Assembly (NCBI GenBank): GCA_964057225.1
Contig: OZ059895.1
Span: forward strand, 9,424,001 to 9,488,000
Length of the DNA stretch: 64,000 bases
DNA from: Auanema rhodensis
Taxonomy: Eukaryota; Animalia; Nematoda
Reading direction: 5' to 3'
In this document: piece after piece, positions 3,992 to 43,501 of the stretch
Position numbering within the stretch: the stretch's first letter is position 1
Layout: every line of letters begins with the position of its first letter
Made by a program: the position numbers and the translations under genes
Notes under the pieces: model-generated
What the model was told of the DNA's origin: nothing
Databases searched by the model: none
Seen by the model: only the letters and a program-made list of their open reading frames with translations

Positions 3992-4007
3992 ATGTTTTAT
4001 TCAACAG

Positions 4008-4373
4008 TTATACAAGACCACATAACGATTTTCGAAGGTTTAAAAGGTAGTTCAGCGCCGTTTTGTTCGATGCGCGGCTCGTGTTGTGAATATTCTCGGT
4101 TACTATTGCAGCGGCATCGTTTTGGTTCTGTTGACTATACAAAGTCCTCAGTTTTTTCAGAGGGTTCGCTGGTATCATTTCCATCACCATCTTTACCATT
4201 CGTTCCATTACTATTATGAAGACGCCGAATATGACGCTGACAATTGAATCTTGTTCCAAAAGTTTCACTACAATAAGGGCACAAACGTCTACGAACACCA
4301 TCCAAATGTCCATATTTTTGAATAAAGTCAGCATTGCTGATATAACTGTTACATACGGGTTGAATCCCTTCAT
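4008..4373 (-). CDS. Hydrophobic overprinted protein (+1 frame of the ZnF gene)
   Basis: Open in all three copies. Substitutions between subfamilies are mostly synonymous in this frame (see findings). Confidence 0.65.
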   Translation of the reverse strand: MKGFNPYVTVISAMLTLFKNMDIWMVFVDVCALIVVKLLEQDSIVSVIFGVFIIVMERMVKMVMEMIPANPLKKLRTLYSQQNQNDAAAIVTENIHNTSRASNKTALNYLLNLRKSLCGLV

Positions 4374-4461
4374 GTCTTTTCAATACGTGATCACTAAAAT
4401 GCTTGATTGATGAAAATATTTCCTTGCACGTAACACAATACTTGTTACATAAAAGTTCCAT
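4135..4461 (-). CDS. Two-C2H2 zinc-finger protein
   Basis: CVTC..F.....F..HVLKRH and CPYC..TF..RFNC.RHIRRLH. Confidence 0.75.
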   Translation of the reverse strand: MELLCNKYCVTCKEIFSSIKHFSDHVLKRHEGIQPVCNSYISNADFIQKYGHLDGVRRRLCPYCSETFGTRFNCQRHIRRLHNSNGTNGKDGDGNDTSEPSEKTEDFV

Positions 4462-10100: not shown

Positions 10101-12904
10101 TACACTTGTAAAGATGTTAAATACAAACCTTGAACTTTTCTTGCTTCTTTTTTAGCTGAGCCTTCTTCTTGTCGTTAGGTGGAACCCAACAACAAGAGTG
10201 CTCTTCAGGCTTTGTCTGACCGCACTTTTTGCAGAATTTTTCATTGCAATTGTGCGGTCTATCAGCACGGACCATGTGATAGTGATCACACGCCACACAT
10301 GTCTGAATTTAAGCTTGTTATGTACAACTTTAAATTTTCACAAAATACCTTGAATTTTCGGCAGGCTTTTCGCAAATGCCTATCGAAGCATTGATGAGTT
10401 TTAAACAAAACTCTACAACTATCACACCTCACGCTACTCTCAACCACATTCCCCATCGCATTACAATTATAGGTGTGGCATTTTTTACATTTGGCTTTAC
10501 ATCTATGCAACACTGTATTGTAAGATAACTTACAGTGTTGACATATAATACCATCAAAAATTTTCGAACGACTACCAGCTGTAATACAATCATAGTGATT
10601 ATTTCGGTAACCTAGTGTTACCAATTTGCTAGCCGCTTCATTAAATATTTTCTGGATAGTGTACATACGCTGTCCAGGCGGTCTAGCATATACTACAAAC
10701 TTATAGTTTGCATTACAGCTGGCAATAATGTTTAAATGAATTAAATTATAATTTGGTAAATCTACAGAAATACCACACCTATTTAATAAATTGATATGGT
10801 GTGGCTGATTTGGCAATAAGATGTAATTGCGACGAAGGTTTTGCAGCCTTCGCTTCTCATCGCCATCTTCAGTGGCCAGCTCGTCAGCTTTCCACATTCC
10901 CACAACTGCTGATCTAGCCAGACAATGTGAGTCAGTGTTGGCAATGGTTCCAGGTATTTTGAGTTCGGGGTCAAAATAAAACCCAACTCTACCTTCACCG
11001 GGCATCAGGCTTGGCTGCGCTGGCCTTTCATCAAACACATACATCTCAATATTCATTGCCTGGCTGATTACAGCCTCTCGTTTTGATTGCTGCACCTTGC
11101 TGATGGCATTCATAATGGCTACGCCATCCAGATGCTCCCTTCTACGAAAGTCCATAAATATGGAGCCCTTTTCAAAGGAAGGGTGCTCAATTGATAAACA
11201 AAATAAGGCTTTTTGTTTATCAGGCACACCGCTTTCAGCAAGACAACGATCAAGGAATTCGTTGAATAACCGCGGCATGATAACATGCATTGGTTCATCA
11301 ACATTTTCCAAGTGTGGGAACGTGAGCGATCGAACGACCACATTGGTAAAACGACCGGTGCGTTTTATGCGCCGGTGTGACCACTATAATAAACAACATT
11401 TATAACAGTTTACATGCTTTTTTATTTTTTTTAAAGTTTAAATAAAAATAGTTTTAAGAATATATATGAATTGTTTCATCTTTTGCTTATAATTATTATG
11501 TCTCTTTGTTTGTTATAGTCGTTATTTTTTATTTAATTGAAATGGTTTCAAATATATGTTTAGTTTGTTTCAAAACGATTAGAAAAATACAAAATATTTA
11601 AATGTTTCAGTTTTTGAGCATCAATTTTTTTTTTAATGTTTAAAAATTTAATAAATAAAAATTAAATAATAGTAGAATTATAAAATTGTTTAAAATATAT
11701 ATAAATGAAAGAGATGAAGTGAAATGGCTTAGAAAATACAAAATATTTAAATGTTTCAGTTTTTGAGCATCACGATATTGAAATTTAAATGTTTTTTAAT
11801 GATTAAAAATTTAATAAACGAAATTATGAAAAAGTGATAGAAATTTAAACTTGTTCAAGATATGTGATTAAATAAAAGAGATGAAGTGAAATGGCTTAGA
11901 AAATATAAATCTGTTTCATGTTTCAGTTTTTGAGCATCACAATATTGAAATTTAAATGTTTTTTTTTTAATGATTAAAAATTTAAAAAATGAAATTATGA
12001 AATAGTGGTAGAAATATACAATTGTTTAAAATAGATGGAGTGAAATGGTTTAGAAAAAACAAAATATTTAAATGTTTCTGTTTTTGCGCATCAAAATATT
12101 TAAATTTAAGTGTATTTTAATGATTAAAAATTTAATAAATAAAAATTAAATAATAGTAGACTAATAAAATTGTTTAAAATATGGGATTAAATAAAAGAGA
12201 TGAAGTGAAATGGTTTAGAAAATACAAAATATTTAAATGTGTCAGTTTTTGAGCATCAAAATATTTAAATTTAAGTGTATTTTAATGATTAAAAATTTAA
12301 TAAATGATATTATGGCATGGATTTGGGATAAGATTTAATTTTATTTTTCAAAAAGCCTCCAAATGTATGATGATTTGTTTAAAAATAGATGGCAGAATTC
12401 AAAATTGTTCAAGATATGTAATCAAATAAAAGATATAGAGTGAAAAGAATTGTAACATAAAAAAAAAAAAGTTAAAAGCTCGTACCTTTATTTGACAAAA
12501 ATCGTTGAAGGATGAACCGCCTCCTAATTGTTCTCCACTAGTTGATGGCATCTCGGGATTCCATTCTCTGAAAAAAAAAATCATGCTTTTTCATTATACG
12601 ATAGCTTACTCATTATCGCTGTCATCCAAGGTGATAACTTCAATAACCCTTGATTACGAGGGACCACTATTGGAAGTGGTTATTGCGGGGTCACAGAGCT
12701 CAACTCCACCACTCTCGGTAAGCTTTATGCGCTTACTAAAAAAAAACAACAAAGATGTATATTTTAAAAATATTGTTAAATTACCTGAGTTGATAAATTT
12801 CCTCATAATCGAACCCCAACTCTTCACATACACGCTTATAACTGAAAATAAATATTTTAATTAAAAAAAAAAGCTAGGAAAAAACACAACCTGTTAGCAG
12901 CCAT
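7154..12904 (-). pseudogene. Protein-primed DNA polymerase B (intron-containing), frameshifted
   Basis: ExoI FYDFET, ExoII AHNGSRFD, ExoIII YCRTDV, motif A DFCSLYP, motif B KLQLN|SVWGK, motif C YT|DTDS. Exons reconstructed from GT/GC-AG sites starting at ATG 12904 (MAANS...). Confidence 0.92.
11570..12305. repeat. About four degenerate ~170-bp tandem units in pPolB intron 4
   Basis: Repeated core tttcagtttttgagcatc...attaaaaattt...gatgaagtgaaatgg. Same unit as the satellite at 60440-64000. Confidence 0.85.
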
Positions 12905-24892: not shown

Positions 24893-25345
24893 TTAAATGT
24901 GAAACGACCGCTCACGAGTAATGCACAACCGCTTATGAGGTTTTGTGGTTTTGTGTCGTCGCCGTTTGCCCAAGCCGGTAAGATCTCGTATAGCTTGCCG
25001 GCCGGCTGTTTCAAGAGTTTCCTTGATATTACCGCCTTTCAGCACCCCATCGACAATTTCATTACCAGTTTTCAACAACTGTCCGCCAAGAGGTGAATTT
25101 ACAACTGGACTATTGCTTACAGCACTGGATAAGGCGTTTCTTCCGGCATTGATGAGATTTTGGGCTATAGGTGATTGAATGATGCGTGGTAGAAATGATG
25201 CCAAAGTTGCCAAAATACCACCCAAACCATGACCCCTCTGCATTCCACGTTGAAACATCATTCCGCTAAATGGGGCGCCACCCATTTGTTGATTTAAAAG
25301 TGTTGTCCATTGAATAGAGTTGACATCCAAAAGGAGGTGCGGCAT
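24893..25345 (-). CDS. Basic core precursor protein
   Basis: Homologue of 5228-5680. Confidence 0.75.
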   Translation of the reverse strand: MPHLLLDVNSIQWTTLLNQQMGGAPFSGMMFQRGMQRGHGLGGILATLASFLPRIIQSPIAQNLINAGRNALSSAVSNSPVVNSPLGGQLLKTGNEIVDGVLKGGNIKETLETAGRQAIRDLTGLGKRRRHKTTKPHKRLCITRERSFHI

Positions 25346-25396
25346 ATCGAACCGCACGCGCGCAATACAAAAGTTACACTAGATCATTCTACTAAA

Positions 25397-25852
25397 ATGT
25401 ATTCGTCTGAAATAGTATCACTATTGCAATCTGTCCCCAGCACTCGGAAACTATTCCTCGGTGTATATAGCGCTGATACTCTACCCAAAACGCGTCGTAA
25501 AAACTTTGCACTTGTCGTAAATACTGACACACATGATAAGCCAGGCACACGTTGGCAGGTTATCTTTGTCCGTAACAAGCAAGCCTTTTTTTTCTGTAGC
25601 TTGGGATATAAAATAAACAAGTACATTCAAAATTATCTGGCCAAATATAAAAAGGTAAAAATTAATACTTGCAAACCACAACGTTTAATTGAATACACTT
25701 GTGGTGGCTATGTGGTATTTGTAATACTAATGTTGTCGGCTGGTAATTCATTTGAAAGCATTTGTTCATTTTTCAAACTATTGAAAAATGATGATGTCTT
25801 TATTAAAGCATTTATGCATAAAGTATTCGACTATAAATTGGCTACTATATAA
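25397..25852 (+). CDS. Adenain-like protease, catalytic His replaced by Arg (PGTRW)
   Basis: Full-length ORF. The other two copies have THW at this position. Confidence 0.88.
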   Translation: MYSSEIVSLLQSVPSTRKLFLGVYSADTLPKTRRKNFALVVNTDTHDKPGTRWQVIFVRNKQAFFFCSLGYKINKYIQNYLAKYKKVKINTCKPQRLIEYTCGGYVVFVILMLSAGNSFESICSFFKLLKNDDVFIKAFMHKVFDYKLATI

Positions 25853-25893
25853 GAAATTTGTCATTAATAACCTGCTACATTACGTGATCAGTT

Positions 25894-26064
25894 ATGAATA
25901 TTCCTTGTCACTGTGAATTATGTGTCAAATACACGTTGGAGCAATCTAAATCAGCGCCTTTATACAGGAGAATGTTGAAATGTATTTCAGTGCCATTTAT
26001 CAAAGGTATAGCATTGGAATTGGGCTTTTGTACAACACTAGTCATATTATTGCTCATTATATAA
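25894..26064 (+). CDS. 56-aa CxCxxC microprotein with hydrophobic C-terminus
   Basis: Homologue of 4503-4673. Confidence 0.6.
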   Translation: MNIPCHCELCVKYTLEQSKSAPLYRRMLKCISVPFIKGIALELGFCTTLVILLLII

Positions 26065-26105
26065 AAGTGGGTTGATTGCGTGTGGTCGTTTTTCATTTTC
26101 CTCTA

Positions 26106-26435
26106 ATGGAACTTTTATGTAACAAATATTGTGGTACATGCAAGGAAATATTTTCTTCAACCAAGCATTTTAGTGATCACGTTTTGAAAAGGCATGCAGG
26201 GATTCAACCCATATGTAACAATTATATCAGCAATGCTGACTTTATTCAAAAATATGGACATTTGGATGGTGTTCGTAGACGTTTGTGCCCTCATTGTAGT
26301 GAAACTTTTGGAACAAGATTCAATTGTGAGCGTCATATTCGGCGTATTCATAATAATAATGGAACGAATGGTGAAGATGGTGATGGAAATGATACCAGCA
26401 AACCCTTTGAAAAAGCTGAGGAGTTTGTACATTAA
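26106..26435 (+). CDS. Two-C2H2 zinc-finger protein
   Basis: CGTC...H...H and CPHC...H...H. Confidence 0.75.
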   Translation: MELLCNKYCGTCKEIFSSTKHFSDHVLKRHAGIQPICNNYISNADFIQKYGHLDGVRRRLCPHCSETFGTRFNCERHIRRIHNNNGTNGEDGDGNDTSKPFEKAEEFVH

Positions 26436-26532
26436 ACCCAATCAAAAAGATGCCGCAGCAATAGTGACGGAGAACATTTACAACACGAGCCGAGCGACAA
26501 ACAAACCTGCCCTAAACTATCTTCGAAAATAA
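26194..26532 (+). CDS. Hydrophobic overprinted protein
   Basis: Homologue of 4008-4373. Confidence 0.65.
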   Translation: MQGFNPYVTIISAMLTLFKNMDIWMVFVDVCALIVVKLLEQDSIVSVIFGVFIIIMERMVKMVMEMIPANPLKKLRSLYIKPNQKDAAAIVTENIYNTSRATNKPALNYLRK

Positions 26533-26566
26533 AAATGTGGTCTTGTATAACTGTTGAATAAAACGT

Positions 26567-27424
26567 TTATTTCATATTTTTAACATGTAATGTAACAATT
26601 GTAGAACCATAATTAAATTGCATAGGACGACCAAATTCATCTAAAATTTCAATACGTATGGTATCGAGTGTTTGTCTAGTGATTGGTACATAACGAATAG
26701 GATTAAATGTTTTGGCAATCATTTTACCAAATTCAGTAGGAGGTGGTACAGGTAAACATGCAAGTAAATTAGCTTTCACATTACCAAGAATGGAATATTC
26801 TACAATATCACAATATATATACATTGTATTAATGTTATTTGAAAAATCAATGGGACGCCTGGCTATTATTGTATCGTTAATGTTTTTATTTTCAAAACCA
26901 AGAAAATATGCAAAATCATCACCAAGTGTTGCATTCATTAATTGTCGCTTGCTTGTTACAAACTCTATGCGCTGCAATTTTTTATTAAACTGAAATGTGG
27001 CGTCTGCGAGCATTTCCTCCACTAGCTTAGCCTCAGCCTGGCGATTATTATACCATTTTTTTACATCTTCATCTTTATCTATTAAACTTTTTATACGTGC
27101 TTCTTCCTCAGCTCCAAGAGGCTTTGTATTGTTGGCGATAAATAATTCTCTTCCAGCATTGATTCCGCGTATTATTTCATCACCATTTGCATAGTTGCCT
27201 TTAGGCAAGTGTAGAATAAATTTTCTATTGGAAAAACGTAGTGTATAAGATAATTCTTTTTGAACATTTAATATAGAACAAGGAAAAATGATGTCTGTCA
27301 GCCCAATGCAATATCTATTATTGCGTAGCCTTAGTGTTTCAGGTAATCTGGTAAGAAACACTGATGATGTATTACTTTTTTCAGAGTCAACTGATGATGG
27401 AAGAGTAATGTAAAAATCATCCAT
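26567..27424 (-). CDS. Minor capsid protein, intact
   Basis: 285 aa, homologue of 3134-3991. Confidence 0.85.
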   Translation of the reverse strand: MDDFYITLPSSVDSEKSNTSSVFLTRLPETLRLRNNRYCIGLTDIIFPCSILNVQKELSYTLRFSNRKFILHLPKGNYANGDEIIRGINAGRELFIANNTKPLGAEEEARIKSLIDKDEDVKKWYNNRQAEAKLVEEMLADATFQFNKKLQRIEFVTSKRQLMNATLGDDFAYFLGFENKNINDTIIARRPIDFSNNINTMYIYCDIVEYSILGNVKANLLACLPVPPPTEFGKMIAKTFNPIRYVPITRQTLDTIRIEILDEFGRPMQFNYGSTIVTLHVKNMK

Positions 27425-27503
27425 GACAAACCACCACTTGATACGTGTACACTATTGCAAATGAAATCATTTGCATTTTAGGTACATTTACGAGTGGTTG
27501 ATT

Positions 27504-27904
27504 ATGGTTTTCAGCTTCAAACTACCCAGTCAGACAACTGTAATAGGTGCTACCCAATGCGGTAAAACAACCCTCATAAAGCACATATGTGAAAATACTG
27601 AAAAATTTTTCAACGTCCCCATTGATAGAATATTCTGGTTCAGTCAATGTGGGTCATCGTCAGGTGTACCAATAAATGATGAGCGTTTAATAATCATTCA
27701 AGGGCCGCCTGATCCTGATTTGATAAAAGAACAAAAGGGAGTAAATACTATACTAGTGCTGGATGATTTGATGAACTTTTTTCTCATCGAATAAATCATT
27801 TTTACAGTATGGGCTCATCACTGGAATTTGGCAGTGTTTAATCTTGTGCAAGCGGCATTTCAACTGGACAGGACCAGTCGAATCAATAGTACATATATAA
27901 TACT
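27504..27904 (+). pseudogene. Packaging ATPase, 5' part (split by the nested element)
   Basis: GATQCGKT and LVLDD. Ends at STYIIL and continues as MKSHSD after 43495. Confidence 0.9.
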
Positions 27905-29136
27905 AGTAGAGAGCCGTGCAAAATTTACTAACCACGCCCCCAAACAGCTGTCAAAAACATACTTTTGGGGGGCGTCAGCTGCTAAAAACATACTTTTGGG
28001 GCGCGTCAGCTGTCAAAAACATATTTTTGAGCGTCAGCTGTTAAAATCATATTTTGGGATAATGGTTCATGGATTCTCCTTTTTTAAATTTAAAAATCAT
28101 GATTTAAAGCATGATTTAAATTTTTTTTTTTAAATCAAATTTAAATATGCTTTTTTAAATGTACTTTAAAAATCATGATTTATAGTATGATTTTTTTAAA
28201 AATTAAATTTTAAATTTGTTTTTTCAAATGTATGTATATGTTTTTAATTATTTTTAAATATATTAAGTGAAAATAAAAATTATAAATTTTAAATATATAA
28301 ATTTGTTTTTAAATTTTATTTATTTATCATATTTATTAATAATATTTGTTTACTTTTTGTTTATTTTTTATTGTATTGTGTTTGTACTTTTTTATTTGTA
28401 TTTTGAAGAACAATAAAATTTTTGCATGTATATCGTTTTGTTCACCGTACTTGTTATGGGTAATTCAATGGAACACATATCGAAAGTTAATTCGATAAGA
28501 ACGATATGAAATACCAAAATTTAATGGAACACATATCGAAAGTTAATTCAATAAGAACGATATGAAATACCAAAATTTAATGGAACACATATCGAAGGTT
28601 AATTCGATAAGAACGACATTAAATTATTAATTTTTGAAATTACAAATTGTTATTAATTATATTTATTGTAACAAGTAAAGGTTTCAAATTATAATAAAAG
28701 ATTAGTTTTAAACTTTATTTTACTAATATAACAATACAATAACTAAATAGAGCACACATTGAAGGTGAATACGACGGGATTAACAAACAGTTGCGCTGAC
28801 CTCAATGAAACGCATAAAGTTAATTTAATAAGAAGGAATAACAAAAATTGATCCGACGGGGACAATAAAAACAGATGTATTCAATATGCTTATTTATTTT
28901 AAAGTTTATCGCAACTGCTAGTTTTGACAGCTGTACCTAAATCCATGTTACATAACAAATTACAATGCCAACAGCAATGTGTAGACTGATGTATTCATTA
29001 TATCAAGGTACAATGGCTGCTAATAGGTTGTGTCTTTTTGATTATTTGTTTGTAAACTTTTTCTTTTTTTAGTTATAAACGTTTATGTGAAGAGCTAGGA
29101 TTTGATTATGAAGAGATTAATCAGCTCAGGTAATTT

Positions 29137-29517
29137 TGTCACATCTGCAAGCACATGGTAAACATGTGCGCGCTATTCAAATAGCGAGAGCCTGAACAAG
29201 CCCCGCCCACAACATCGGACACACATGACACTCTTGCTTCTGGCCTAACCCAGATAGGTTGTCTTATAGCCATGTGAGTCTCATCTCTATATCATCTATA
29301 TATATACTTTATTTAATACTTTATTATATCTCTTTATATTCTTTCTTAATGTAATTCTTATATTGTATTTTCTTGTTATCTGATAATGAATCCTTTTCGC
29401 TTTAAGTATTTGTCTTAATAAGGAAATCGGGGCGTACGGGTCTGCCTACCTAAGGAACAAGGTAGAAGTACATATATCTTCCGACCATGAAAAGACGGGA
29501 AGAAACAGTATGTAACG
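29137..29517 (+). mobile_element. 5' LTR of an LTR retrotransposon
   Basis: 381 bp, TGTCACA...TGTAACG. Roughly 96% identical by eye to the solo LTR at 19796-20176. Followed directly by a PBS. Confidence 0.88.
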
Positions 29518-29530
29518 TGGAGGTTCCACC
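29518..29530 (+). promoter_or_regulatory. Primer-binding site, tRNA-Gln
   Basis: TGGAGGTTCCACC is the reverse complement of the eukaryotic tRNA-Gln 3' end (GGTGGAACCT-CCA). It lies immediately after the LTR. Confidence 0.85.
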
Positions 29531-30218
29531 TTGCTTACTTTACTGTTAATTTATTGACAGCAAGTTTACGAGACTTTTGGACTTAATTACCCAACAGTGA
29601 GGAGTAACCGAGCCGTGCACCATTATTTCCCCAAAAATTATTTTGGCTACCACTTCTCCTCCGCTCAACAAAAACTGGGAGGTGTCTGAGACGTTTGGGG
29701 AAACTATCAGACAATAGTTTTGACGAGCGTTACCTTTTTGTTATGCACGCGTGCTATTTTGATTTATTACTTTATGATGTGAATGTCCAGTGTGGCAACA
29801 GAGCTCACTTTTTAGCTGAGTTATTTGGAAGCTGGAGGCTGTTGGGATAATTTTATTTACGATTTTTGATTTTGATTCACATCCAAGGGTTCATCAGGGT
29901 TCCACTCCTGTTAACTCTTTTCTTATTAGTTCAGAGATAATAAGAACATTTAAATTCCTACCCACCCAAGTCCACCTTACGTCTGCCAACGTTTCCTTTT
30001 TCCTATATTATTGACAGATTACTGAATTTAAATTCCTATATCAATCTTAAATTGTCTTCTAAATCTTTTGAAATTAAAATAAAAATTATCTTTAATTACA
30101 CACACACTCGACTGGTCGACCGTTTAGGTTGTCTTGTCGTTGTCGTAGGGTAGCTTGAGGGTTAATATCTGTCTTCTGCCTCGTTGCGCACTCGTTTCCC
30201 CTTGGGAATCGTACCGCG

Positions 30219-31379
30219 ATGATGGAGTTGACCAACTTCTTCATCTGTGATGAAGAACACCCTATTTCTACCTGGACGAAAGAAAATTACGAACATGCTA
30301 TTGCTGAATTGGTCCAAAAAATCAAGTTAGGTCCAGACGACGTTCACTTTGACCATGTCACAAGTGAACCTTTCCTTAAACGTCTAACCTTACTTGCTGC
30401 GAGCGACCTACGCAAAAAACTATGCAATTCTTCCCGTCTTACCATCCGACTGAAACAACGATTGTCGGATGAAGAACTTTCTTACCTCAATGAAAATTTT
30501 TCGATGTTTAACATTGAAGTTGCTGGTAACGATCGAGGTCCGCATTACGAACTACGTGCCCTACGAACCATCTTGGGTCATTATATACGTTACCAGCTGA
30601 TTGAAACATCAATCGGAAACAATAACATCCAATTGTCAAAAAAGTACCACGTTTTGCTAAAGGATATAGGAAGTAATCCGTTACAACTTATAAACTCTGG
30701 TTGGACTTCTTTTCATTCTTGTAGCCCAGTTGTCAATGCAGCAGATATTCATCGTAACTGTTCGCAAAATACCCAGCTACAACGTATTCTTGACTTTGAC
30801 CCTGAAATGTTGGAAGTAAGAACTAAAATTTCCGATAGGATTCTGAAAGGAGATCAAATGTACACTTGTAAGAACATGTCGCAACATTGTCAGATAACAG
30901 CCCCATACATGACGTTTATCCACTCCATTTACGATATTTCCCCGGCTGATTTGTTGAAAATGTTAGAAAATACCAATGTGAAGAAGGCGTCCGGAGTAAT
31001 TTTATTTGATCCGATCGTTTTGTTCCAACAATCGGGAAAATTTTCGGAACTAACAGGAGTAAATTTTACTCGATACAAATCACACGGCGTTCAGTGGATA
31101 AAATTTCATTTCGACAACGATTCTCAAGATTCATATATTCATCGTTGGGACACGTACATTGCTATAATTGTATCGTTTGCGATGAGATCGCTTTCCACGG
31201 ACACAATGTACTCAATAATGTGTGCATTGTACATTCGCAATCATCTTGTATTTGATGTTGTCAGAAGCGACTATACTTTACCTAAACATAACGTGTCACG
31301 ATGCCTTCCGTTTGTGTCGCCCACAAACAAATTTTTACTTATGAGCCGTGTGATACAACAATATATGGATATAAAGTAG
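30219..31379 (+). pseudogene. Endogenous (+)RNA virus replicase, part 1: alphavirus-supergroup methyl/guanylyltransferase
   Basis: Motifs GPHYELRALR (His), KDIGSN, HSCSP..NAADIHR, CKN.SQHC and HSIYDI, as in virga/nege/kita-like capping enzymes. Intronless, with higher GC than the flanks. Confidence 0.88.
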
Positions 31380-32795
31380 TCATTGTTCCGATATATAATA
31401 ATTTATTTGAAAGAGTTTTATCCTATGCAATGATGGCTCCGGAAGAGAAATTCACATTTAGACAAGTGTTTACCATCGCTGGTTCGATGAATGTCCGAAC
31501 AATTATTAACGGTCAAACGGTTGAAAGTCGCCAACAACATTCGTATCGCGAATTGTTGTTAATTTCAGTAGCGGCGTATGCGACGGTATATTACGATAGG
31601 TACCAAACGTCACAGACAACACGAGAATTCACCGATTCAGCTTCTGATGGCCGTCACAGTATCCTTAGACGTATAGTCTCCCCTACATTTTATTCCGGAC
31701 TAAAGAGAATAACTCAGACGCATACTGTAGAACTGATGTCCGAAGACTGTAACAAATTTTCCTCTAAGGAAAAGTTAGATCCACTTGAGTTATCTGCCGG
31801 AGACACATTTATTGATAAGATAGTTGACTATCTTTGTACCGACAAAGGAGCATTTCCAATTAAAACTGCTGAACTTCTCGATTACGTTGAGTTTTCTGAC
31901 GTTATCCCTGAGGTGATCAGAGATGATACTACTCTCCTTGAAGATGATCCATGCGTGAAATTAATTTTTCCAGATTCTATCAACCCGACGGTCGTGAAAC
32001 CGAAGTTGCTTCCAGATATACACATTCCGGTACACAAAGTTGTTAACCCAACTGTCATCTCTTGCAATATTACATCTTGTGCCGAAGATTTGGAGACCGT
32101 TCCAACACCGGGTGATGGAGACTGTTTATATCATTCTCTTAGATTATCAGGTGCAACGAATGATTCGGTCGTTGTCATCAAACGTAAACTTGCGTCATCA
32201 GACAAAGCAACGCCAGAGCAAGCTAAACGGCTACTAAGTGCAGGATCTTGTATCGACGAGGAAACTTGGGGTACCTCAGATGACGTACCATTATTTTGCG
32301 GCGCCTATAATGTGGCTGTCTGTTTACATTCGTCAAACGGAAGTTGTATTTTGTATAAACCTGAATATTATACTTCAGACAAGCCTGTGTACCACATCGT
32401 TCATACGGTTAACCACTTCTCCGCGCTTGAAAAGAAAAGACCAAGTTCTAATGGTGTACAACTATCGAAGATATCCGATAATGTTCAAACCGGTGATTAT
32501 CCCACACAGCGAGTGAACGATTTAACAAAAGCGTACGGGACGTTTTTTGAATCCCTTCCAGCAGTCGTATATCGCAGACTAAAAGACGTAATATGTCCAA
32601 CCCACCCTTTAGAGAAAGGAGGCTTTGTTTGTAGATCCGCCATAAAACTATGTGAGTTATACGCTTTAGGGAGTATTGACCTCTATCACGATAAAATCTT
32701 TGATTTATGTAGCGGTCCGGGCGGATTCATTGAATTCGTACTTCAAAATTCTGCAGCCGATATACACACACTGTATGGAACAATTCCCGTGCAGC
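31301..32795 (+). pseudogene. Endogenous (+)RNA virus replicase, part 2: OTU-like protease + truncated FtsJ/RrmJ 2'-O-methyltransferase
   Basis: OTU: TPGDGDCLYHSL...WGTSDD...HTVNHFSAL. FtsJ: CRSAIKLCEL...IFDLCSGPGGF. Joins Maverick mCP sequence at 32796. Confidence 0.85.
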
Positions 32796-33380
32796 GAAAT
32801 AATACGCGGAATCAATGCTGAAGAGAATCATTTATCGCCAACAATACAAAGCCTCTTGGAGCTGAGGAAGAAAAACGTATAAAAAGTTTAATAGATAAAG
32901 ATGAAGATGTAAAAAAGTGGTATAATAATCGCCAGGCTGAGGCTAAGCTAGTGGAGGAAATGCTCGCAGACGCCACATTTCAGTTTAACAAAACATTGCA
33001 GCGCATAGAGTTTGTAACAAGTAAGCGGCTATTGTTGAATGCAACACTCGGTGATGCTCTCGCATATTTTCTTGGTTTTGAAAATAAAAACATCAACGAT
33101 ACAATAATAGCCAGGCGCCCCATTGATTTTTCAAATAACATTAATACAATGTATATATATTGTGATATTGTAAGCTAATTTACTTGCATGTTTACCTGTA
33201 CCACCTCCTACTGAATTTGGTAAAATGATTGCCAAAACATTTAATCCTATTCGTTATGTACCAATCACTAGACAAACACTCGATACCATACGTATTGAAA
33301 TTTTAGATGAATTTGGTCGTCCTATGCAATTTAATTATGGTTCTACAGTTGTTACATTGCATGTTAAAAATATGAAATAA
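32796..33380 (+). pseudogene. 5'-truncated minor capsid gene
   Basis: Resumes at GAAATAATACGCGG (EIIRG). Small deletion at ~33172. Confidence 0.88.
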
Positions 33381-33385
33381 ACGTT

Positions 33386-33850
33386 TTATTCAACAGTTAT
33401 ACAATACCACATTTTTATTTTCGAAGGTTTAAAAGATAGTTTAGGGCAGTTTTGTTTGTCGCTTGGCTCGTGTTGTGAATGTTCTCCGTCACTATTGCTG
33501 CGGCATCTTTTTGATTGGGTTGAATGTACAAACTCCTCAGCTTTTTCAAAGGGTTTGCTGGTATCATTTCCATCACCATCTTCACCATTCGTTCCATTAT
33601 TATTATGAATACGCCGAATATGACGCTCACAATTGAATCTTGTTCCAAAAGTTTCACTACAATGAGGGCACAAACGTCTACGAACACCATCCAAATGTCC
33701 ATATTTTTGAATAAAGTCAGCATTGCTGATATAATTGTTACATATGGGTTGAATCCCTGCATGCCTTTTCGAAACGTGATCACTAAAATGCTTGGTTGAA
33801 GAAAATATTTCCTTGCATGTACCACAATATTTGTTACATAAAAGTTCCAT
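33386..33850 (-). CDS. Two-C2H2 zinc-finger protein (longer C-terminus)
   Basis: Homologue of 26106-26435. Confidence 0.72.
   Translation of the reverse strand: MELLCNKYCGTCKEIFSSTKHFSDHVSKRHAGIQPICNNYISNADFIQKYGHLDGVRRRLCPHCSETFGTRFNCERHIRRIHNNNGTNGEDGDGNDTSKPFEKAEEFVHSTQSKRCRSNSDGEHSQHEPSDKQNCPKLSFKPSKIKMWYCITVE
33415..33762 (-). CDS. Hydrophobic overprinted protein
   Basis: Homologue of 26194-26532. Confidence 0.65.
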   Translation of the reverse strand: MQGFNPYVTIISAMLTLFKNMDIWMVFVDVCALIVVKLLEQDSIVSVIFGVFIIIMERMVKMVMEMIPANPLKKLRSLYIQPNQKDAAAIVTENIHNTSQATNKTALNYLLNLRK

Positions 33851-33891
33851 TAGAGGAAAATGAAAAACGACCACACGCAATCAACCCACTT

Positions 33892-34062
33892 TTATATAAT
33901 GAGCAATAATATGACTAGTGTTGTACAAAAGCCCAATCCCAATGCTATACCTTTAATAAATGGCACTGAAATACATTTCAACATTCTCCTGTATAAAGGC
34001 GCTGGTTTAGATTGCTCCAACGTGTATTTGACACATAATTCACAGTGACAAGGAATATTCAT
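33892..34062 (-). CDS. 56-aa CxCxxC microprotein with hydrophobic C-terminus
   Basis: MNIPCHCELCVKY...GIALGLGFCTTLVILLLII. Confidence 0.65.
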   Translation of the reverse strand: MNIPCHCELCVKYTLEQSKPAPLYRRMLKCISVPFIKGIALGLGFCTTLVILLLII

Positions 34063-34103
34063 AACTGACCACGTAATGTAGCAGGTTATTAATGACAAAT
34101 TTC

Positions 34104-34560
34104 TTATATAGTAGCCAATTTATAGTCGAATACTTTATGCATAAACGCTTTAATAAAGACATCATCATTTTTCAATAGTTTAAAAAAATGAACAAATGCT
34201 TTCAAATGAATTACCAGCCGACAACATTAGTATTACAAATACCACATAGCCACCACAAGTGTATTCAATTATGCGTTGTGGTTTGCATGTATTAATTTTT
34301 ACCTTTTTATATTTGGCCAGATAATTTTGAAAGTACTTGTTCATTTTATATCCCAAGCTACAGAAAAAATAGGCTTGCTTGTTACGGACAAAGATGACCT
34401 GCCAATGTGTGCCTGGCTTATCATGTGTGTCAGTATTTACGACAAGTGCAAAGTTTTTACGACGCGTTTTGGGTGGAGTATCAGCGCTATATACACCGAG
34501 AAATAGTTTCCGAGTGCTGGGGACAGATTGCAATAGTGATACTATTTCAGACGAATACAT
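34104..34560 (-). pseudogene. Adenain-like protease, late frameshift
   Basis: PGTHW and YTCGGY present. Stop at 34180 after a poly-T indel. Confidence 0.88.
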
Positions 34561-34611
34561 TTTAGTAGAATGATCTAGTGTAACTTTTGTATTGCGCGCG
34601 TGCGGTTCGAT

Positions 34612-35073
34612 ATGCCGCACCTCCTTTTGGATGTCAACTCTATTCAATGGACAACACTTTTAAATCAACAAATGGGTGGCGCCCCATTTAGCGGAATGAT
34701 GTTTCAACGTGGAATGCAGAGGGGTCATGGTTTGGGTGGTATTTTGGCAACTTTGGCATCATTTCTGCCACGCATCATTCAATCACCTATAGCCCAAAAT
34801 CTCATCAATGCCGGAAGAAACGCCTTATCCAGTGCTGTAAGCAATAGTCCAGTTGTAAATTCACCTCTTGGCGGACAGTTGCTGAAAACTGGTAATGAAA
34901 TTGTCGATGGGGTGCTGAAAGGCGATAATATCAAGGAAACTCTTGAAACAGCCGGCCGACAAGCTATACGAGATCTTACCGGCTTGGGCAAACGGCGACG
35001 ACGCAAAACCACAAAACCTCATAAGCGGTTGTGCATCACTCGTGAGCGTTTCACATTTAAATGGCTAAATTGA
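34612..35073 (+). CDS. Basic core precursor protein
   Basis: Homologue of 5228-5680. A small 3' deletion alters the last codons. Confidence 0.7.
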   Translation: MPHLLLDVNSIQWTTLLNQQMGGAPFSGMMFQRGMQRGHGLGGILATLASFLPRIIQSPIAQNLINAGRNALSSAVSNSPVVNSPLGGQLLKTGNEIVDGVLKGDNIKETLETAGRQAIRDLTGLGKRRRRKTTKPHKRLCITRERFTFKWLN

Positions 35074-36397
35074 TAGATTCAAAATCAGCACAAGCCCTTT
35101 TACCTAATATCAACTATGGTGATATACCAGCGTCGGCATCAGGTGTAGAGTCTACTCGTACTGTACAAGTCCCTTTGAAAAATACTTTTCTTCCTCAAGG
35201 ACCATGGGAATTTGTTATAGCTCAAAATTTCAAATCATTCCTCAATCTGAGAAGATGTTGGTTGAATGTAAAATTTAAAATTGTAACCACAAACGGTGAT
35301 CCAGTACCAGACAACCTTGTTTTTGCACCATGTCAACAATTTGCTGCCAGTTTAATACATTCGTATCATTTAAAAATTGGCGATGTTAGCGTGTATGACT
35401 CTACCGTGAATCATGCCTATAAAACATATATCGAGAATATTTTAATGTATAGCAACGATGTTAAAGAGAGCAAACTTGCCATATCAGGCTATTATGCTGA
35501 TAGATATATATATATAATGCATCCAGTGCTGGATTTAGAACGCGTCAAACGCTTGTAAAAAATGGCATATTGTGTGAGATGGCTGCTCCCGTCAGTATCG
35601 ACCTATTTAATCAAGAGCGACTGTTTGTAAACTATTCAAAAATGGAGCTTACTGCATATCCAAACCGTGATAACTTTTTAATTGACACTCTAGGCTGGAA
35701 TAATGAAAACAAGGATACTACATTAAAGGAGGAGTTTCCAAATTTGAAAGTAGATATCAGCGATGTACATTTGCTCATGCAAGAGTTTGATATAAACGCT
35801 GGATTAGCTATGGCTATAGAAGATAAACTCGCAAAGGATCGAATACACTACCTCATGACATCAGTGAAAATGCGCTCTTATTTCATAGAAGGAGGCCGCT
35901 TGGATTCACCTAATAATATATTATTCACGTCTCATACACCGAAACGTGTTGTAGTAGGTCTTGTTGGCGCACACGCCTATAATGGTACTTTTAAACATTC
36001 GCCATTCAACTTTAAACCGTTTGATTTGAAAAATATATACTTGACGCTCAACAATAGGGTAATACCTACCCGTCCTTATAATTTAGAATGGCGATCTTCC
36101 TATGCCACAGCATATATTGACATGCTCGAAGGTTTGGGACTTGGTCGTACAGATTCATCCAATGGTATTACACCAGCAATGTATAAAGCTGGTTTCACAT
36201 TTTTTGTATTTGATATTTCTCCTACTGTGCATTCGTCAGAGTTATTTGATGTTATACGACAAGGTAATGTAGCCTTGAAATTGGAATTTGGTCAACAAAC
36301 GCCGCAAGAGGGTTTATATGCTATTGTTTATGCAGAATATGACTCTATTCTTTCAATTGACAACAATCGTGCTCCATATATTGATACCAGTTTGTAA
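35061..36397 (+). pseudogene. Major capsid protein, frameshift in an AT dinucleotide run at ~35505-35516
   Basis: ORFs 35061..35558 and 35570..36397 are collinear with the intact MCP. Confidence 0.9.
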
Positions 36398-37260
36398 TGT
36401 ATGTAATAAACTTTTTAAAACATTTGATGAGAAGAATAAAATTTATTAATACAACTATACATAAAAATCTATAAATACAACCATATACAAATATACACGC
36501 AATAATAAAATTTATAAATTCAAATATACTAAAAATTATTCACAATAACCATAAGGTAAAGTACTAAAATCGTCTAGATAACAAAGTTTATCCATTACGA
36601 CCTTGGTACTCTTTGTCATGTCCATCGTGGATATGGAACCAAGCTGCCTCTTTAATAACGTTGTATTGGTTTTTGAAACCAATTTTTCTCCATCCATCAC
36701 GAGTCCTCGAACCAATCGCTCCATACTTTGATAGTTTACCACGGTGGCTGCCGTGTGGTCCAGCGTCTGTAATTTTAAAAGTTTCTCAATAATATATTTT
36801 TTATACTTTACCAGCTGCATTTACTAGCTCATAACTATAAAGTTTTGCAGCTGGTGAAACAAATTTGGTCATTGACCAACCATCGGGTATTTCTGAGGTT
36901 AGTTTACCTAACCATTCACCCTTCATATCCTCAATTGGATCAGGCTGATCGAGGCATTTTAAATAAATTAGAAAATCGGTGTCTAAATGATATACGTTTA
37001 AATTGTTTACAAAGTATAAAATTACCTGTATACACCAAGGGCTTATATGCAATTGTTTATGCAAAGTATGACTCTATTCTTTCAATTGACAACAATCGTG
37101 CTCCATATATTGATACCAGTTTGTAATGTATGTAATAAATTCTTTAAAAGATTTAAGAATAAAATTTATTAATACAACTATTTTTAAAAAATACATGTAC
37201 AATGATAAAATTTTATAAATACAAATATATACAAGATAAAAATTTATAAATTCAAATATA

Positions 37261-40200
37261 TTAAACACAATAACCGTAGGGTAAAGTACTATAATCTTGT
37301 AGATAACAAAGTTTATCCATTACAACTTTAGTACTTTTTGTCATATCCATTGTGGATATGGCACCGAGTTGCCTCTTTAACAAGGTTGTATTGGTTTTTA
37401 AAACCAATTTCTCTCCATCCATAACGAGTCCGCGAACCAGTCGCTCCATACTTTCAAAGTTTACCACTGATGCTGCCGTGTGGTCCAACGTCTGAAAATT
37501 ATAAAATTATTTGAAAAGTCAAAGCTCGTTCTTACCACTCCCTTTGCCTTTGTTACATACTTTACATCACCAGCTGCATTTACAAGTTTATAACTATAAA
37601 CTTTTGCCGCTGGTGACACAAACTTGGTCATTGACCAACCATCGGGTATTTCAGAGGTTAGTTTACCTAACCATTCACCCTTCATATCCTCAATTGGATC
37701 TGGCTCATCTAGGCATCTTTGATAAATTAGAGAATCCGTGTCTAAATAATGTAAGTTTAAATTGAATACAAAGTATAAAATTACCTGTATACACCAAATT
37801 CTTTCCAATTTTCTCCGTTGCCTTATACAATAGTAGCCTTGCATGAGCGGTTGTATAGGCCGCAATAGCTACGTTTGTAAAAGGCGGTGGTGCCAAATGT
37901 GAATCCTCTGGTACTGTTGTGCAGTACGCAACATTATCCACAATTTTGAACCCAGTGAGTTCCCTTGCAGGATCAGTAATGATCCTACCAATTTCTGGGT
38001 CCTCAACACCAATAATCTTGGTTTGGGCTTTATCAGGTCTTTGACCCATTTTACCCCAGACACTATAAGCAAATTTGTAATGTATTGTTTTTAAAAAGTT
38101 TACAAACCTATTTAGCTGCAGTTTGGCAATGCTACGCATGGCAGCATTCTTTTCAATTTTATTGCTCTCCAGAGCAACACCAGTGTTCTCCTCGTGCTCT
38201 TGGAGATAAATCACCTGTAAAATTCTATTTAATGTGATACTTTTATTAAAACATACCTTTTCTTCCTCTGTCATGTTTGGCCTTGGCCAGCCCGACGCCT
38301 CTTGTTTAATTTTTATGTACTTTTGTACAAACTCTTTAAACATGCCGCCTTGTTGCCATTCTTCCCAGTGCCACACCTCATGCACATGAAGCACTTTATA
38401 GCCACGTTGTATGGCACACTCGAGCTCAACATGTGTCACAGTTAGATGCAGCTTTCTAGCATTTACATCATTTTGGTGCTCACATGCTACATTTTTACTC
38501 TTGACTGCACAAGTGCGGCAGTTTGTAAAAATTAATTTACCGCCAATACGTGTGCCTAATACAGGGTACAGCAAATTTGTGGGTGCAAGCACGTCACATT
38601 TTACTAGCCCCTTGTATGGGCAACATGTCTCAAAGCTTTTGAAACCCTCAGTAATAACTTTGGGATTACCTACAGGGTAATAGGCATCAAAAGCGGTGAC
38701 ATATGGATATAGTGAACAAAAGTCCACATACTCGAGCGAGTATCTATCCGAAGCTTGTGCCAAAAGCTTATATGTCTGGGTGCGGCCACCGGTAAAGGCA
38801 TCTCTAGGTGCCAAGCGTGTAACAACATTTGTTTCACGCATAAATTTCGCCATTTCTTCATTGGCCGAAATTTGAGCATTAATTTCGTGCTCCCACACAG
38901 TGGTAACACTAATGCCTTGGCTTTGAATTGCTTCAAGCCTTTTCATGGTTTTATCATAAACCTAAATTTTTCAAATTAAAATGATTAAAAAAGTCACAAT
39001 TACCTCTTCCATTGTTTCACCATTTCTGCCTGGTGCTATAGCGCTCTTGTTGGTGCACTGGGGGCAACCATGGTAAATGCAACCATTAATCTACAAAAAT
39101 TTGCATTTTTTACATTTTTTACAAATTACTCACCTCATAGCCATGATTGGCAACGGGGTCATAAGCATCGAGTAGATAGCGATGGCCATCTACTCTCACT
39201 GCAAATTCGCCACCATTAAGCTTATGCATTAATGGGCGGCCCAATCCTTGTTCTAGCCATTTTAGATACTTTATGGCTATTATACTCTGCTTTTGACCGG
39301 CATAATAACCAGTCTCGGGCAGAATACCCACTTGGTTCTCTTTAATATGATTCATTTTCAACTGTAATATACTAGTTTTGAAAATGCTTGTATTTGAAAA
39401 AACTTGCCTGGAATAAAGAGAAACTGGCAAATGTCATACATTGTATGACAGGGTTCCAGCCAGTGGTGGCGGTTGCCAACTTCATGTAAACTTTCATACA
39501 GTTGGTTAAAATACGGACATCTGTCCTACAATATTCCAAAAGCTCTTCATCAAAATCAAACGCTCTTTGATTACGCTCTTCATACCAAATATTGAATGAA
39601 GCTAGGTCTTCTGCTTTCATTCTAGCAGTACAATAGTACTGTTTTGGTGGTAAAGATGGCAACACTTTGCCATAATTTATTGGATGATTATAAAGGTAAG
39701 GAAACTGTCCTTTACTCATATCAGGTACACCGAATGCCTTGGGTAATGCTGATAAGGGTAAAGGCACTAATAAATAACTATCTTTAAAATATAAATGATT
39801 AAATTTTTGACCTCTTAAAGGCTTGACAACCATGCTAATAATCTTGGTCCCATTTAAAATTGGATCAGGATATATTCCACGGTTTATCAGCCTAGACACC
39901 AAGAAATGTATGTCAAAGCGTGAACCATTATGCGCAATCAAAATTGCATTATCATTCTCAACAGAGTTGAGTAACCAATCAAGGAAACGATCTGTTACAG
40001 ACCATTCACTATCACCTTGTTGGTACCCAAAATGGCCCTCCTTGGTTGTGCATTTTTCGCATGAATTGGCGTCTATACAACTTTCACAAAATTTATTATA
40101 CACAACCATATTGGGCCATTGTTCATCTGCATATTCATGAACATTTGTACCGTTTTTTAACACAACCGTTTCAAAGTCATAGAATATAATCTTAAACAAG

Positions 40201-42318
40201 TAAGCATTACACTTGTAAAGATGTTAAATACAAACCTTGTATTTTTCTTGCCTCTTTTTTAACTGATCCTTCTTCTTGTCGTTAGGTGGTACCCAACAAC
40301 AAGAATGATCTTCAGGCTTTGTTTGCCCACACTTTTTGCAAAATTTCTCATTGCAATTGTGCGGTCTATCAGCACGTACTCTGTGATAATGATCACAGTT
40401 TTCACATGTCTGAATTTAGTCTTGTTAAATTTTATATAAATTTTTTAAATTACCTTAAACATTCGACATGTTTTTCTAATATGCCTGTCAAAGCATTGAC
40501 GAGTTTTGAACAAAACTCTACAACTATCACATCTTATGCTACTTTCAACCACATTTTCCATCGAATTACATTTTAAGGTGTGGCATTTCTTACACTTGGC
40601 TTTACATCTATGCAACACTGTTTTGTAAGATAATTTACAGTGTTGGCATATATCACCATCAAAAACCTGTGATCTACTACAAGTAGTAATACAGTCATAA
40701 TGATTATTTCGGTAGCCTAGTGTTACCACTTTGCTAGCCGTTTCATTAAAGATACGCTGAATAGCGTACATACGCTGTCCAGGTGGCCTAGCGTATACTA
40801 CAAACTTATAGTCTGTATTACAACTTGCAATAATATTTAAATGGTTCAAATTATAATTTGGTAAATGTACAGAAATACCACACCTATTCAATAAATTGAT
40901 ATGATGTGGTTGATTTGGCAACAAGATGTAGTTGCGACGAAGATTTTGAATCCTCCGCTTCTCAATTACATCTTCTGCTGCCTCTTCATCGGCTTTCCAC
41001 ATTCCCACAACTGCTGCTCTAGCCAGGCAATGTGTATCAGTGTTCTCAATTGTGCCAGGTATTTTGAGTTCGGCATCAAAATAGAAACCAACTCTACCTT
41101 CACCAGGCATCAGGCTTGGCTGCACTGGTCTCTCATCAAACACAAAGGATGGGTGCTCTATTGATAGACAAAATAGCGCTTTTTGTTTATCTGGCACACC
41201 ACTTTCAGCAAGGCACCGATCAAGGAACTCATTAAATAGCCGCGGCATGACAACATGCATTGGCTCATTAATGTTTTCCAAATGTGGGAACGTGAGCGAT
41301 CTAACGACCACGTTGGTAAACCGACCAGTGCGTTTTATGCGTCGGTGTGACCACTATAATACACACTTTTTATAATGGTTATTTAGTTTAGATATTTAGT
41401 TTAAATATAAATAATTTTTGTTTATAACTTTTAATAAATTTACTTTTCTTTAAATTATTTTTATATTCTTTTATTAAAAATAAATGGCATTTGATTTTTA
41501 AATATAAAGTTTTTTCTTTTATAAACATTTGTTAATGTTTAAAAATAAATGAAAAGGTCAAGATGGTGTTTTATTATTTTACTAGTTCAAAATGTTTGAA
41601 ATATTTATAATTTGTAAGAATTCAAAATTGGTTGAAAGAAAGATATATAGTGAGATGAAATGTAAAGATTTTAAAATGAATGCTGTTCAAAAGAATGAAT
41701 ATATAAGTTTCAAAATACTTGCAATTTGTTTGATAAAAGATATAGATTGAGATGAAATGTAAAGATGAGAGAGAGAGAATTTTATGAATGCAATTGAAAA
41801 AGAGATATAAATTTCAAAATGTTTTCAAAATATGCAATTGGAGCAAGAGAAAATTTCATGTTTCAAAAGATATTTTATGAAATGATATGTAAATAAAAGA
41901 TCGCACCTCTATTTTACAGACATCGTTGAATGCCGCTCCATATCCGACTTGCCCTCCACTGGTTGATGGGGTAGCAGGATCCCATTCGCTTAAAAAGAAA
42001 AAACTAAATGTTATAATTTTAATATCGCTTACTCATCACTGTCATCCAAGGTTATTACTTCAATAACCCTTGATGATGAGGGCCCACTGTTAAAAGTGGG
42101 TGATGTGGGCTCACAGAGCTCGATCCCACCAGCCTCGGTAAACTTTATACGTTTACTAAAAAACAAAATATATATAAAGATTCAAAATATTGTTAAATTA
42201 CCTGAGCTGATTGATTTCTTCATAATCAAATCCTAGCTCTTCACATAAACGTTTATAACTAAAAAAAGAAAAAGTTTACAAACAAATAATCAAAAAGACA
42301 CAACCTATTAGCAGCCAT
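37261..42318 (-). CDS. Protein-primed DNA polymerase B, 14 exons. Appears open after splicing apart from a ~45-codon in-frame deletion at ~41143
   Basis: All exo and pol motifs are restored by GT-AG/GC-AG splicing. Start MAANS at 42318. Confidence 0.85.
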
Positions 42319-43501
42319 TGTACCTTGATATAATGAATACATCAGTCTACACATTGCTGTTGGCATTGTAATTTGTTATGTAACATGGATTTGGGTACAG
42401 CTGTCAAAACTAGCAGTTGCGATAAACTTTAAAATAAATAAGCATATTGAATACATCTGTTTTTATTGTACCCGTCGGATTAATTTTTGTTATTAGTTCT
42501 TATTAAATTAACATTATGCGTTTCATTGAGGTCAGCGCAACTGTTTGTTAATCTTATTGTATTTACCTTCAATGTGTGCTCTATTTAGTTATTGTATTGT
42601 TATATTAGTAAAATAAAGTTTAAAACTAATCTTTTATTATAATTTGAAACTTTTACTTGTTAGAACAAATATAATTAATAACAATTTGTAATTTCAAAAA
42701 TTAATAATTTAATGTCGTTCTTATCGAATTAACTTTCGATATGTGTTCCATTAAATTTTGGTATTTCATATCGTTCTTATCGAATTAACCTTCGATATGT
42801 GTTCCATTAAATTTTGGAATTTTATATCGTTCTTATCGAATTAACCTTCGATATGTGTTCCATTGAATTTTGTATTTCATATCGTTCTTATCGAATTAAC
42901 CTTCGATATGTGTTCCATTGAATTACCCATAACAAGTACGGTGAACAAAACGATATACATGCAAAAATTTTACTGTTTTTTAAAATAAAAACAATACAAA
43001 CACAATACAATAAAAAATAAACAAAAAAAGTAAACAAACATTATAAATAAATATAATAAAGAAATAAAGAAATAAATAAAATTTAAAAACAAATTTATAT
43101 ATTTAAAATTTAAATATGATTTATATATAAAATTTAAAGTTTAAATATAGTTTATATATATAAAATTTAAATATAATTTAAATATTTAAAATTAAGATTT
43201 TTATTTTTACTTAATATATTTAAAAATAATTAAAAATATATACATACATTTGAAAAAGCATATTTAAATTTGATTTTAAAAAAAAATCATGCTTTAAATC
43301 ATGATTTTTAAATTTAAAAAAAGAGAATCCATGAACCATGATCCCAAAATATGATTTTAACAGCTGACGCTCAAAAATATGTTTTTGACAGCTGACGCGC
43401 CCCAAAAGTATGTTTTTAGCAGCTGACGCCCCCAAAAGTATGTTTTTGACAGCTGTTTGGGGGCGTGGTTAGTAAATTTTGCACGGCTCTCTACTAATAC
43501 T

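Follow-up and report, generated by a model that had tools for sequence, protein, structure and literature searches.

Overprinting is well documented in small viruses; in the annotation of Mavericks/Polintons the core genes are named and other ORFs are deemed possibly spurious. MAAP of AAV is a same-strand +1 overprinted ORF of ~100-120 aa with a hydrophobic or leucine-rich product. Polyomavirus ALTO/Middle T and adabscovirus Arnao are also same-strand +1 frames, hydrophobic or leucine-rich, placed in an older gene (PMC11071296, in part). In the D/E pair of phiX174, the high third-position T of the ancestral frame falls on the second position of the new frame and results in a hydrophobic TM protein, and a codon-structure origin of hydrophobicity is described for +1 de novo proteins in general (both in the available part of PMC8227390).

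Zinc-finger genes (Ziftr) are present in some adintoviruses (PMC11071296, in part), and the membrane-active accessory proteins of adintoviruses include PLA2X, GasderminX, and Cupiennin (PMC8502044, in part). All of these are stand-alone captured genes with recognisable relatives, unlike the orphan +1 ORF described below. The term "overprint" occurs 0 times in the available part of PMC8502044, whose accounts of adintoviruses describe no overprinted gene, and the available part of PMC11071296 contains a +1 overprinted ORF in adabscovirus but no overlap like that of the zinc-finger (ZnF) and +1 frames. Nematode Polintons, in the available parts of 10.1101/2023.08.22.554363 and 10.1101/2022.07.12.499685, have a core set of pPolB, integrase, ATPase, protease, and two capsid proteins, and they carry a fusogen. 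Copy B of the present study is without room for one, as the ~1.5 kb between its integrase and terminal repeat is too little for an 866-aa fusogen. The available main text of 10.1101/2023.08.22.554363 contains neither "C2H2" nor "overlap". A search of the open-licence literature gave no report of overprinting in Mavericks/Polintons.

The locus analyzed here, from the nematode Auanema rhodensis, is on balance best read as a nested pair of a likely ancestral C2H2 gene and a conserved orphan +1 gene, which likely arose through overprinting, is likely read from an ATG of its own, and encodes a predicted membrane protein. It resembles phiX174 D/E in the third-position T of the ZnF frame (51/115). 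Unlike that pair, which provides a phage lysis protein with a bacterial target, it belongs to a eukaryotic dsDNA element, has a C2H2 host frame, shows no sequence relation, and is known from sequence alone. The host genes of ALTO/Middle T, Arnao, and MAAP are replicase or capsid genes, whereas here the host is a zinc finger; no homology was found and the virus class is another one. Overprinting itself is known, and the novelty consists in its occurrence in a Maverick, with an apparent newcomer which is more conserved than its parent.

Nested Maverick copies and geometry of the locus

The window, that is, the whole stretch of 64,000 nt analyzed from A. rhodensis (GC ~33%, 0 N), contains decayed Maverick/Polinton copies which are nested within one another. 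The overprinted locus is present three times, as copies A (4461, -), B (26106, +), and C (33850, -) (table 1). Identity at the locus is 97.5% for B versus C and 87.5% for A versus B, and thus two subfamilies (A; B + C) are distinguished. Near-identical sequence was found in 14 public runs of four organisms from four studies.

Protein-primed PolB is recognized in three ORF pieces by Pfam DNA_pol_B_2 above cut-off (E 1e-15 to 8e-23), and an rve integrase with a C-terminal chromodomain is located at 44703-45770 (Pfam; rve E 2e-8, Chromo E 3e-8). Maverick C sits in the ATPase gene of Maverick B, where 6 bp of target sequence are duplicated. Mavericks have long inverted repeats at their termini, ends of the type AG...CT, and target duplications of 6 bp, and element C fits this description. 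The candidates for the jelly-roll major and minor capsid proteins, the adenain protease, and the packaging ATPase fit in ORF size, order, and motifs, with weak P-loop matches. The capsid-like and protease-like ORFs gave 0 significant matches in Pfam, PHROG, and PDB, and the labels capsid, penton, and protease are presumptive, being based on size, order, and motifs. The named matches of the capsid-like protein are from a nematode (28%) and a moth (27%), and its other relatives are at 48-72%.

Table 1. Coordinates of the nested frames, their neighbors, and Maverick element C in the window
Feature	Position	Strand	Length	Remarks
ZnF frame, copy A	3997..4461	-		other subfamily; single premature stop at codon 109 (4135-4137)
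ZnF frame, copy B	26106..26570	+		premature stop at 26433-26435; end coordinate approximate
ZnF frame, copy C	33386..33850	-	154 codons	open
+1 ORF, copy A	4008..4373	-	121 aa	
+1 ORF, copy B	26194..26532	+	112 aa	9-nt in-frame deletion
+1 ORF, copy C	33415..33762	-	115 aa	whole length within the ZnF ORF
56-aa ORF	25894..26064	+	56 aa	CxCxxC near N-terminus
56-aa ORF, further copy	4673-4503	-		
56-aa ORF, further copy	34062-33892	-		
Adenain-like protease (by motif)	25397..25852	+		upstream neighbor; dN/dS 0.26
Likely minor capsid/penton	26567..27424	-	285 aa	convergent, downstream; dN/dS 0.15
Antisense ORF	26157-26432	-	91 aa	shares third positions with +1
Maverick element C	27905..43495	.		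~1.2-kb inverted terminal repeats; AG...CT ends; 6-bp target duplication

The ZnF frame of copies A and B continues past one stop near codon 109-110 to the same terminal stop as in C, which in copy B is beside an AATAAA near 26558-26563. The premature stop and the 9-nt deletion of copy B are absent from the contigs of 4/4 public runs, and the absence of the premature stop of copy A from public contigs was deduced from tallies of change kinds. Both premature stops look like copy-private decay; on this basis the +1 ORF is nested wholly inside the ZnF ORF, spanning codon 30 to ~145-151. The overlap is longer, and the selection signal stronger, than in a previous sequence-only reading of this DNA, which had used the varying ZnF stop as an argument for the +1 ORF; this use was wrong. 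Its statement that the +1 ORF is open in all three copies is accurate; the position of the +1 stop varies (115 aa in C vs. 121 aa in A).

The ZnF protein has two C2H2 fingers (residues 9-30 and 61-82), a degenerate middle finger, and a polar tail. The C-x2-C...F...H-x4-H spacing of the two fingers and their ligands are conserved in 3/3 copies, and the zinc ligands show no change between A and B, as had been noted.

Selection in the two reading frames

The alignment of A and C is gap-free over 465 nt and includes 44 differences, that is, 8 before the +1 ATG, 31 in the overlap, and 5 after it. In the overlap, 21/31 changes are silent in +1 and 3/31 in ZnF, with an expected +1-silent share of 21-26% (about 23%; binomial p between 3e-8 and 1e-6 with kappa set to 1-4). 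The +1 frame shows 21 silent changes at 81.0 sites versus 10 replacements at 264.0 sites (dS 0.32, dN 0.039, dN/dS 0.12, Fisher p 4e-8). The five neighboring genes have dN/dS values of 0.15, 0.26, 0.08, 0.14, and 0.11, and the constraint on +1 is like that of these core genes (0.12 vs. 0.08-0.26). Through nucleotide 87 the silent frame is ZnF; with the +1 ATG, at nucleotide 89, it becomes +1 and stays so. A sliding scan gave the correct third-position class for each neighbor and the +1 class across 26260-26560. Residues 11-54 of +1 are identical in 3/3 copies. Purifying selection acts on +1 along its length, as seen in one subfamily pair and not in a deep alignment, and the +1 frame is very probably a real, strongly selected hidden gene.

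The counts of the sequence-only reading for A versus B were reproduced: upstream of the +1 ATG, 5/7 changes are ZnF-synonymous, and in the first overlap stretch 12/12 are ZnF-non-synonymous and 8/12 are +1-synonymous, the remaining +1 changes being K/Q, V/I, V/I, and T/S. The synonymous bias is also seen in the public contigs: of the subfamily differences listed for them, 18/25 within the +1 span hit +1 third positions (p 9e-5), and upstream 5/7 hit ZnF third positions (p 0.045). This count was chosen to avoid copy-private decay; the listing comprised the best-supported differences, and any difference that set every contig apart from B was regarded as private to B and left out. The overlap counts, dN/dS, and the contig differences support the earlier proposal that a +1 gene under selection overlaps a C2H2 gene in a Maverick.

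In the ZnF frame, codons 1-29 are under selection (dN/dS 0.14, 8 changes). For codons 30-83 constraint is less firmly indicated. The +1-silent divergence is 4/37.6 sites in these codons versus 17/43.4 sites in the tail (p 0.005), so that the rate over the fingers is ~1/4 of that in the tail; the neighbors are at 0.22-0.27 (p 0.01-0.05 vs. codons 30-83). The four informative ZnF changes in codons 30-83 (V/I, Y/H, Q/E, and L/I) are more conservative than the null (p 0.012). The constraint on these codons rests on 4-6 changes, and 2/18 control blocks of 54 codons in neighboring genes are as quiet. Local RNA structure is not the explanation of the quiet stretch (folding z -0.67). The tail (codons 84-144) drifts, with a dN/dS of 2.2 and a BLOSUM score of -0.57 versus -0.53 for the null. 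The earlier claim of selection on both frames stands, on moderate evidence, for ZnF codons 1-83 and fails for codons 84-144, which behave neutrally. If ZnF constraint extends to codon 83, as it appears to, dual coding covers ~54 codons, and +1 is the only governing frame beyond them.

Several observations concern the divergence among copies in this region. A contig of run X9 (26095-26406) has a B-type 5' part and an A-type 3' part, which is due either to subfamily recombination or to an assembly chimera, and recombination of this kind could mimic suppressed divergence. Copies A and C are nearly identical over 26249-26288. Contig pieces of run X5 have loose ends immediately ahead of 26249 and after 26288, and a contig of the same run at 26090-26207 shows 11 differences; these pieces probably represent a third, more diverged subfamily.

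Origin of the overlap and its possible products

The ZnF frame is very likely the ancestral one and +1 the newcomer, as judged from codon choice, third-position T, openness odds, and family-level look-alikes. The synonymous-choice z is +0.2 for ZnF, which matches the element, and -3.6 for +1. Third-position T is 51/115 in ZnF and 21/115 in +1, with 38% in the neighbors. The probability that +1 is open given the ZnF protein is 0.28, versus 4e-5 for ZnF given +1. The ZnF protein matches Pfam zf-C2H2_4 (E 5e-5) with 24.1 bits, below the curated cut-off of 27, its residues 9-88 match a three-finger PDB chain (E 0.003), and small viral C2H2 clusters were matched (0.96). Its 109-aa form gave 0 word-index homologues and 0/7 confirmed viral pattern matches, and a single-sequence structure model (pLDDT 43), in which the fingers are not formed, was uninformative. 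In the search for syntenic outgroup loci through the capsid-like protein, 0/6, 0/63, and 0/163 matches were confirmed, and a 20-nt pattern gave 0 matches in metagenomes.

If ZnF came first, its T-rich third positions would have become +1 second positions and supplied Val, Ile, Leu, Met, and Phe for free. The peak hydropathy of +1 is reached in 21% of 3000 random recodings (p 0.21). With this value and the openness probability of 0.28, neither argument carries weight alone; the openness and the hydrophobicity of +1 are by-products of the ZnF codons. Among reviewed asymmetric overlaps whose genealogy is known, the de novo frame varied more than its partner in 23/23 cases (PMC8227390, in part). 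The apparent newcomer +1 is less variable than its parent, contrary to this regularity, which either counts against the proposed genealogy or makes the locus an exception. The reverse genealogy, in which an old hydrophobic ORF was covered by an extension of the ZnF frame so that Val/Ile codons gave Cys/His, is highly improbable, since codon choice, third-position T, and openness odds point to ZnF as the older frame, and look-alikes at the family level exist for ZnF and not for +1.

The ZnF ATG has a pyrimidine at -3 and the +1 ATG, which is kept in 3/3 copies, has a purine; one or two short out-of-frame ATGs are located between them. It is fairly probable that +1 is made as a separate protein, whether by leaky scanning, with ribosomes passing over the ZnF ATG, or by use of a shorter mRNA. 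In three putative RNA runs, contigs with a depth of 2-6 cover parts of 26053-26460, and no splice or fusion joint was found in these low-depth contigs. A possible splice acceptor precedes the +1 ATG; one putative-RNA contig starts 2 nt beyond this acceptor and another one spans it; contigs show neither start nor strand, and this edge is therefore no evidence.

A GTG-rich motif is found 13-42 nt upstream of nine Maverick ATGs (e.g., 26079-26088, 25881-25890, and 27491-27500), with a score of 100.6 versus 78-88 in 12 shuffles (above 12/12). It is possibly a viral promoter or initiator element. The match to this motif upstream of +1 is equalled in 13/141 internal-ATG windows. Rfam gave 0 matches over 25000-35000.

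A dual-coding pair with two products seems a rather likely description of this arrangement. The silent frame changes directly after finger 1 and an A-rich run follows the last +1 stop and precedes the +1 ATG, which would suit a shift into +1 near ZnF codon 27-30 (or a splice), joining finger 1 to the hydrophobic domain as a membrane-tethered zinc finger beside the in-frame ZnF; for the Penton ORFs of adintoviruses, isoforms with a frameshift have been suggested (PMC11071296, in part). Such a fusion is nevertheless improbable, as the +1 ATG is kept in all copies with its purine at -3, the room for a shift is <10 nt, no downstream stimulatory structure was found (z -0.67), and the low-depth contigs of the three putative RNA runs have 0 joints. 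It is also doubtful that the take-over is complete, with ZnF codons 1-29 and +1 being the parts that matter and finger 2 and the tail remaining as relics frozen by +1. This would agree with the ZnF-silent changes (0/6 in codons 30-83 and 3/23 in the tail), with a probability of ~0.2 that the tail stays stop-free by chance through ~16 changes, and with the quiet blocks that occur in the capsid gene too. However, the reduced +1-silent rate over the fingers and the conservative changes in the ZnF frame there argue against it, and a lone 29-codon piece would be useful only if fused.

The chance is very slight that the signal stems from mutation bias, from RNA structure, or from the antisense frame whose third positions coincide with those of +1. 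The antisense frame is open across part of the overlap with a dN/dS of 0.29, but it contains 3-4 stops where the third-position bias peaks (14/17 changes), is without an ATG in copy A, and fits more poorly than +1. The folding z value (-0.67) and the correct frame given by the same method in each neighboring gene also speak against this reading. The reading with two separate products, in which +1 starts at its own ATG, is followed below.

The +1 protein and its neighbors

The +1 protein is an orphan with no true homologue in the databases searched. The word-index search, which covered lengths of 61-196, gave two candidates, 0 of them at E <= 0.01, there is no usable Atlas match and none in Pfam, PHROGs, or PDB, and 0/16 pattern matches in viral contigs were confirmed. 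A HMMER match, P0011 (E 1e-8), the sole one among 1.84 billion representatives, is a bacterial cadherin-like repeat protein and was rejected because eight weak repeats of 25 bits each sum up.

The protein has a GRAVY of 0.50 and a peak 19-residue hydropathy of 2.13 at ~22-40, with a second peak at 43-64. In copy B the hydrophobic residues are 7-17, 22-39, and 44-57, followed by an amphipathic stretch (57-67, hydrophobic moment 0.71), and the C-terminus is polar. The +1 frames of neighboring genes are equally hydrophobic (GRAVY up to 0.61); the hydrophobicity is inherited from codon structure, yet it is preserved by selection. The AlphaFold model, of low confidence (mean pLDDT 48), places helices at 6-39 and 44-66 with a turn at 40-43, its single Foldseek match has an E of 5, and charged residues are located within the predicted membrane segments. 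The suggestion that +1 is a membrane protein remains a prediction, as hydrophobicity is expected of +1 frames here. A small membrane protein is somewhat favored, in which a helical hairpin in the membrane, made up of residues 22-57, would plausibly precede an amphipathic helix and a soluble tail.

The 56-aa ORF upstream is intact in 3/3 copies and has a hydrophobic C-terminal tail with a peak hydropathy of 2.2-2.4. Its dN/dS is 0.23 (Fisher p 2e-4), versus 0.70 and 1.34 in the other two frames. It shares its frame with the +1 ORF, is separated by 41 nt from the protease on one side and from ZnF on the other, and has 0 Pfam or PHROG matches. It is likely a tail-anchored membrane protein. With this ORF, the frame scan of a subfamily pair has revealed two hidden genes within ~650 bp, and Mavericks hide selected genes which are dropped by ORF callers.

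The label adenain-like protease for the upstream gene is presumptive, with no significant family or PDB match, and the convergent downstream gene is likely a minor capsid/penton from its size and position, with 0 family matches. A 150-aa Gly-rich basic ORF (24893-25345, -) has an amphipathic segment and a weak Pardaxin match (E 0.009). Its dN/dS of 0.08 is the lowest in the block. It is presumably comparable to adenain-cleaved core or membrane-lytic proteins.

A tentative role for +1 would be to permeabilize or remodel host membranes so that a non-enveloped particle gets out, with ZnF as a nucleic-acid-binding regulator. The exit function is a guess, based on analogy and on the fact that copy B is too short of space to hold a fusogen. 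In a broader and equally speculative scheme, a de novo +1 membrane protein would now be essential and dominate selection over its ZnF parent, the take-over being midway, with the fingers constrained and the tail given up, and +1 and the 56-aa protein would compose the egress module of a fusogen-less Maverick. If +1 were a membrane-active exit factor, it would bear on how fusogen-less animal Mavericks leave cells and spread, and a true egress module would be evidence that Mavericks exit cells as particles.

Further observations concern the rest of the window. At 14742 and 19356, other Maverick ends adjoin Maverick sequence. An AT-rich 167-bp satellite array (60430-64000, 11579-12314, and 53990-54727) also occurs in a short form, which in Maverick copies is located in the interval from pPolB to the terminal repeat, and the array may be derived from a Maverick subterminal repeat. 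A stretch at 30219-32821 (+) contains a viral methyltransferase (Pfam E 1e-18), an OTU-like motif, and a fragment of FtsJ (E 3e-6), and looks like the front part of an RNA-virus replicase, presumably negev/virga-like. It is located inside the terminal repeats of Maverick C, at the place expected for integrase/ATPase, and adjoins a truncated penton-like gene near 32796, so RNA-virus cargo carried by Maverick C is possible. A DDE_3-like transposase (E 0.005) is found at 49495-50292 (+). A coiled-coil ORF which belongs to another mobile element is repeated, at 1312-1869 (-) and 54882-55658 (-).
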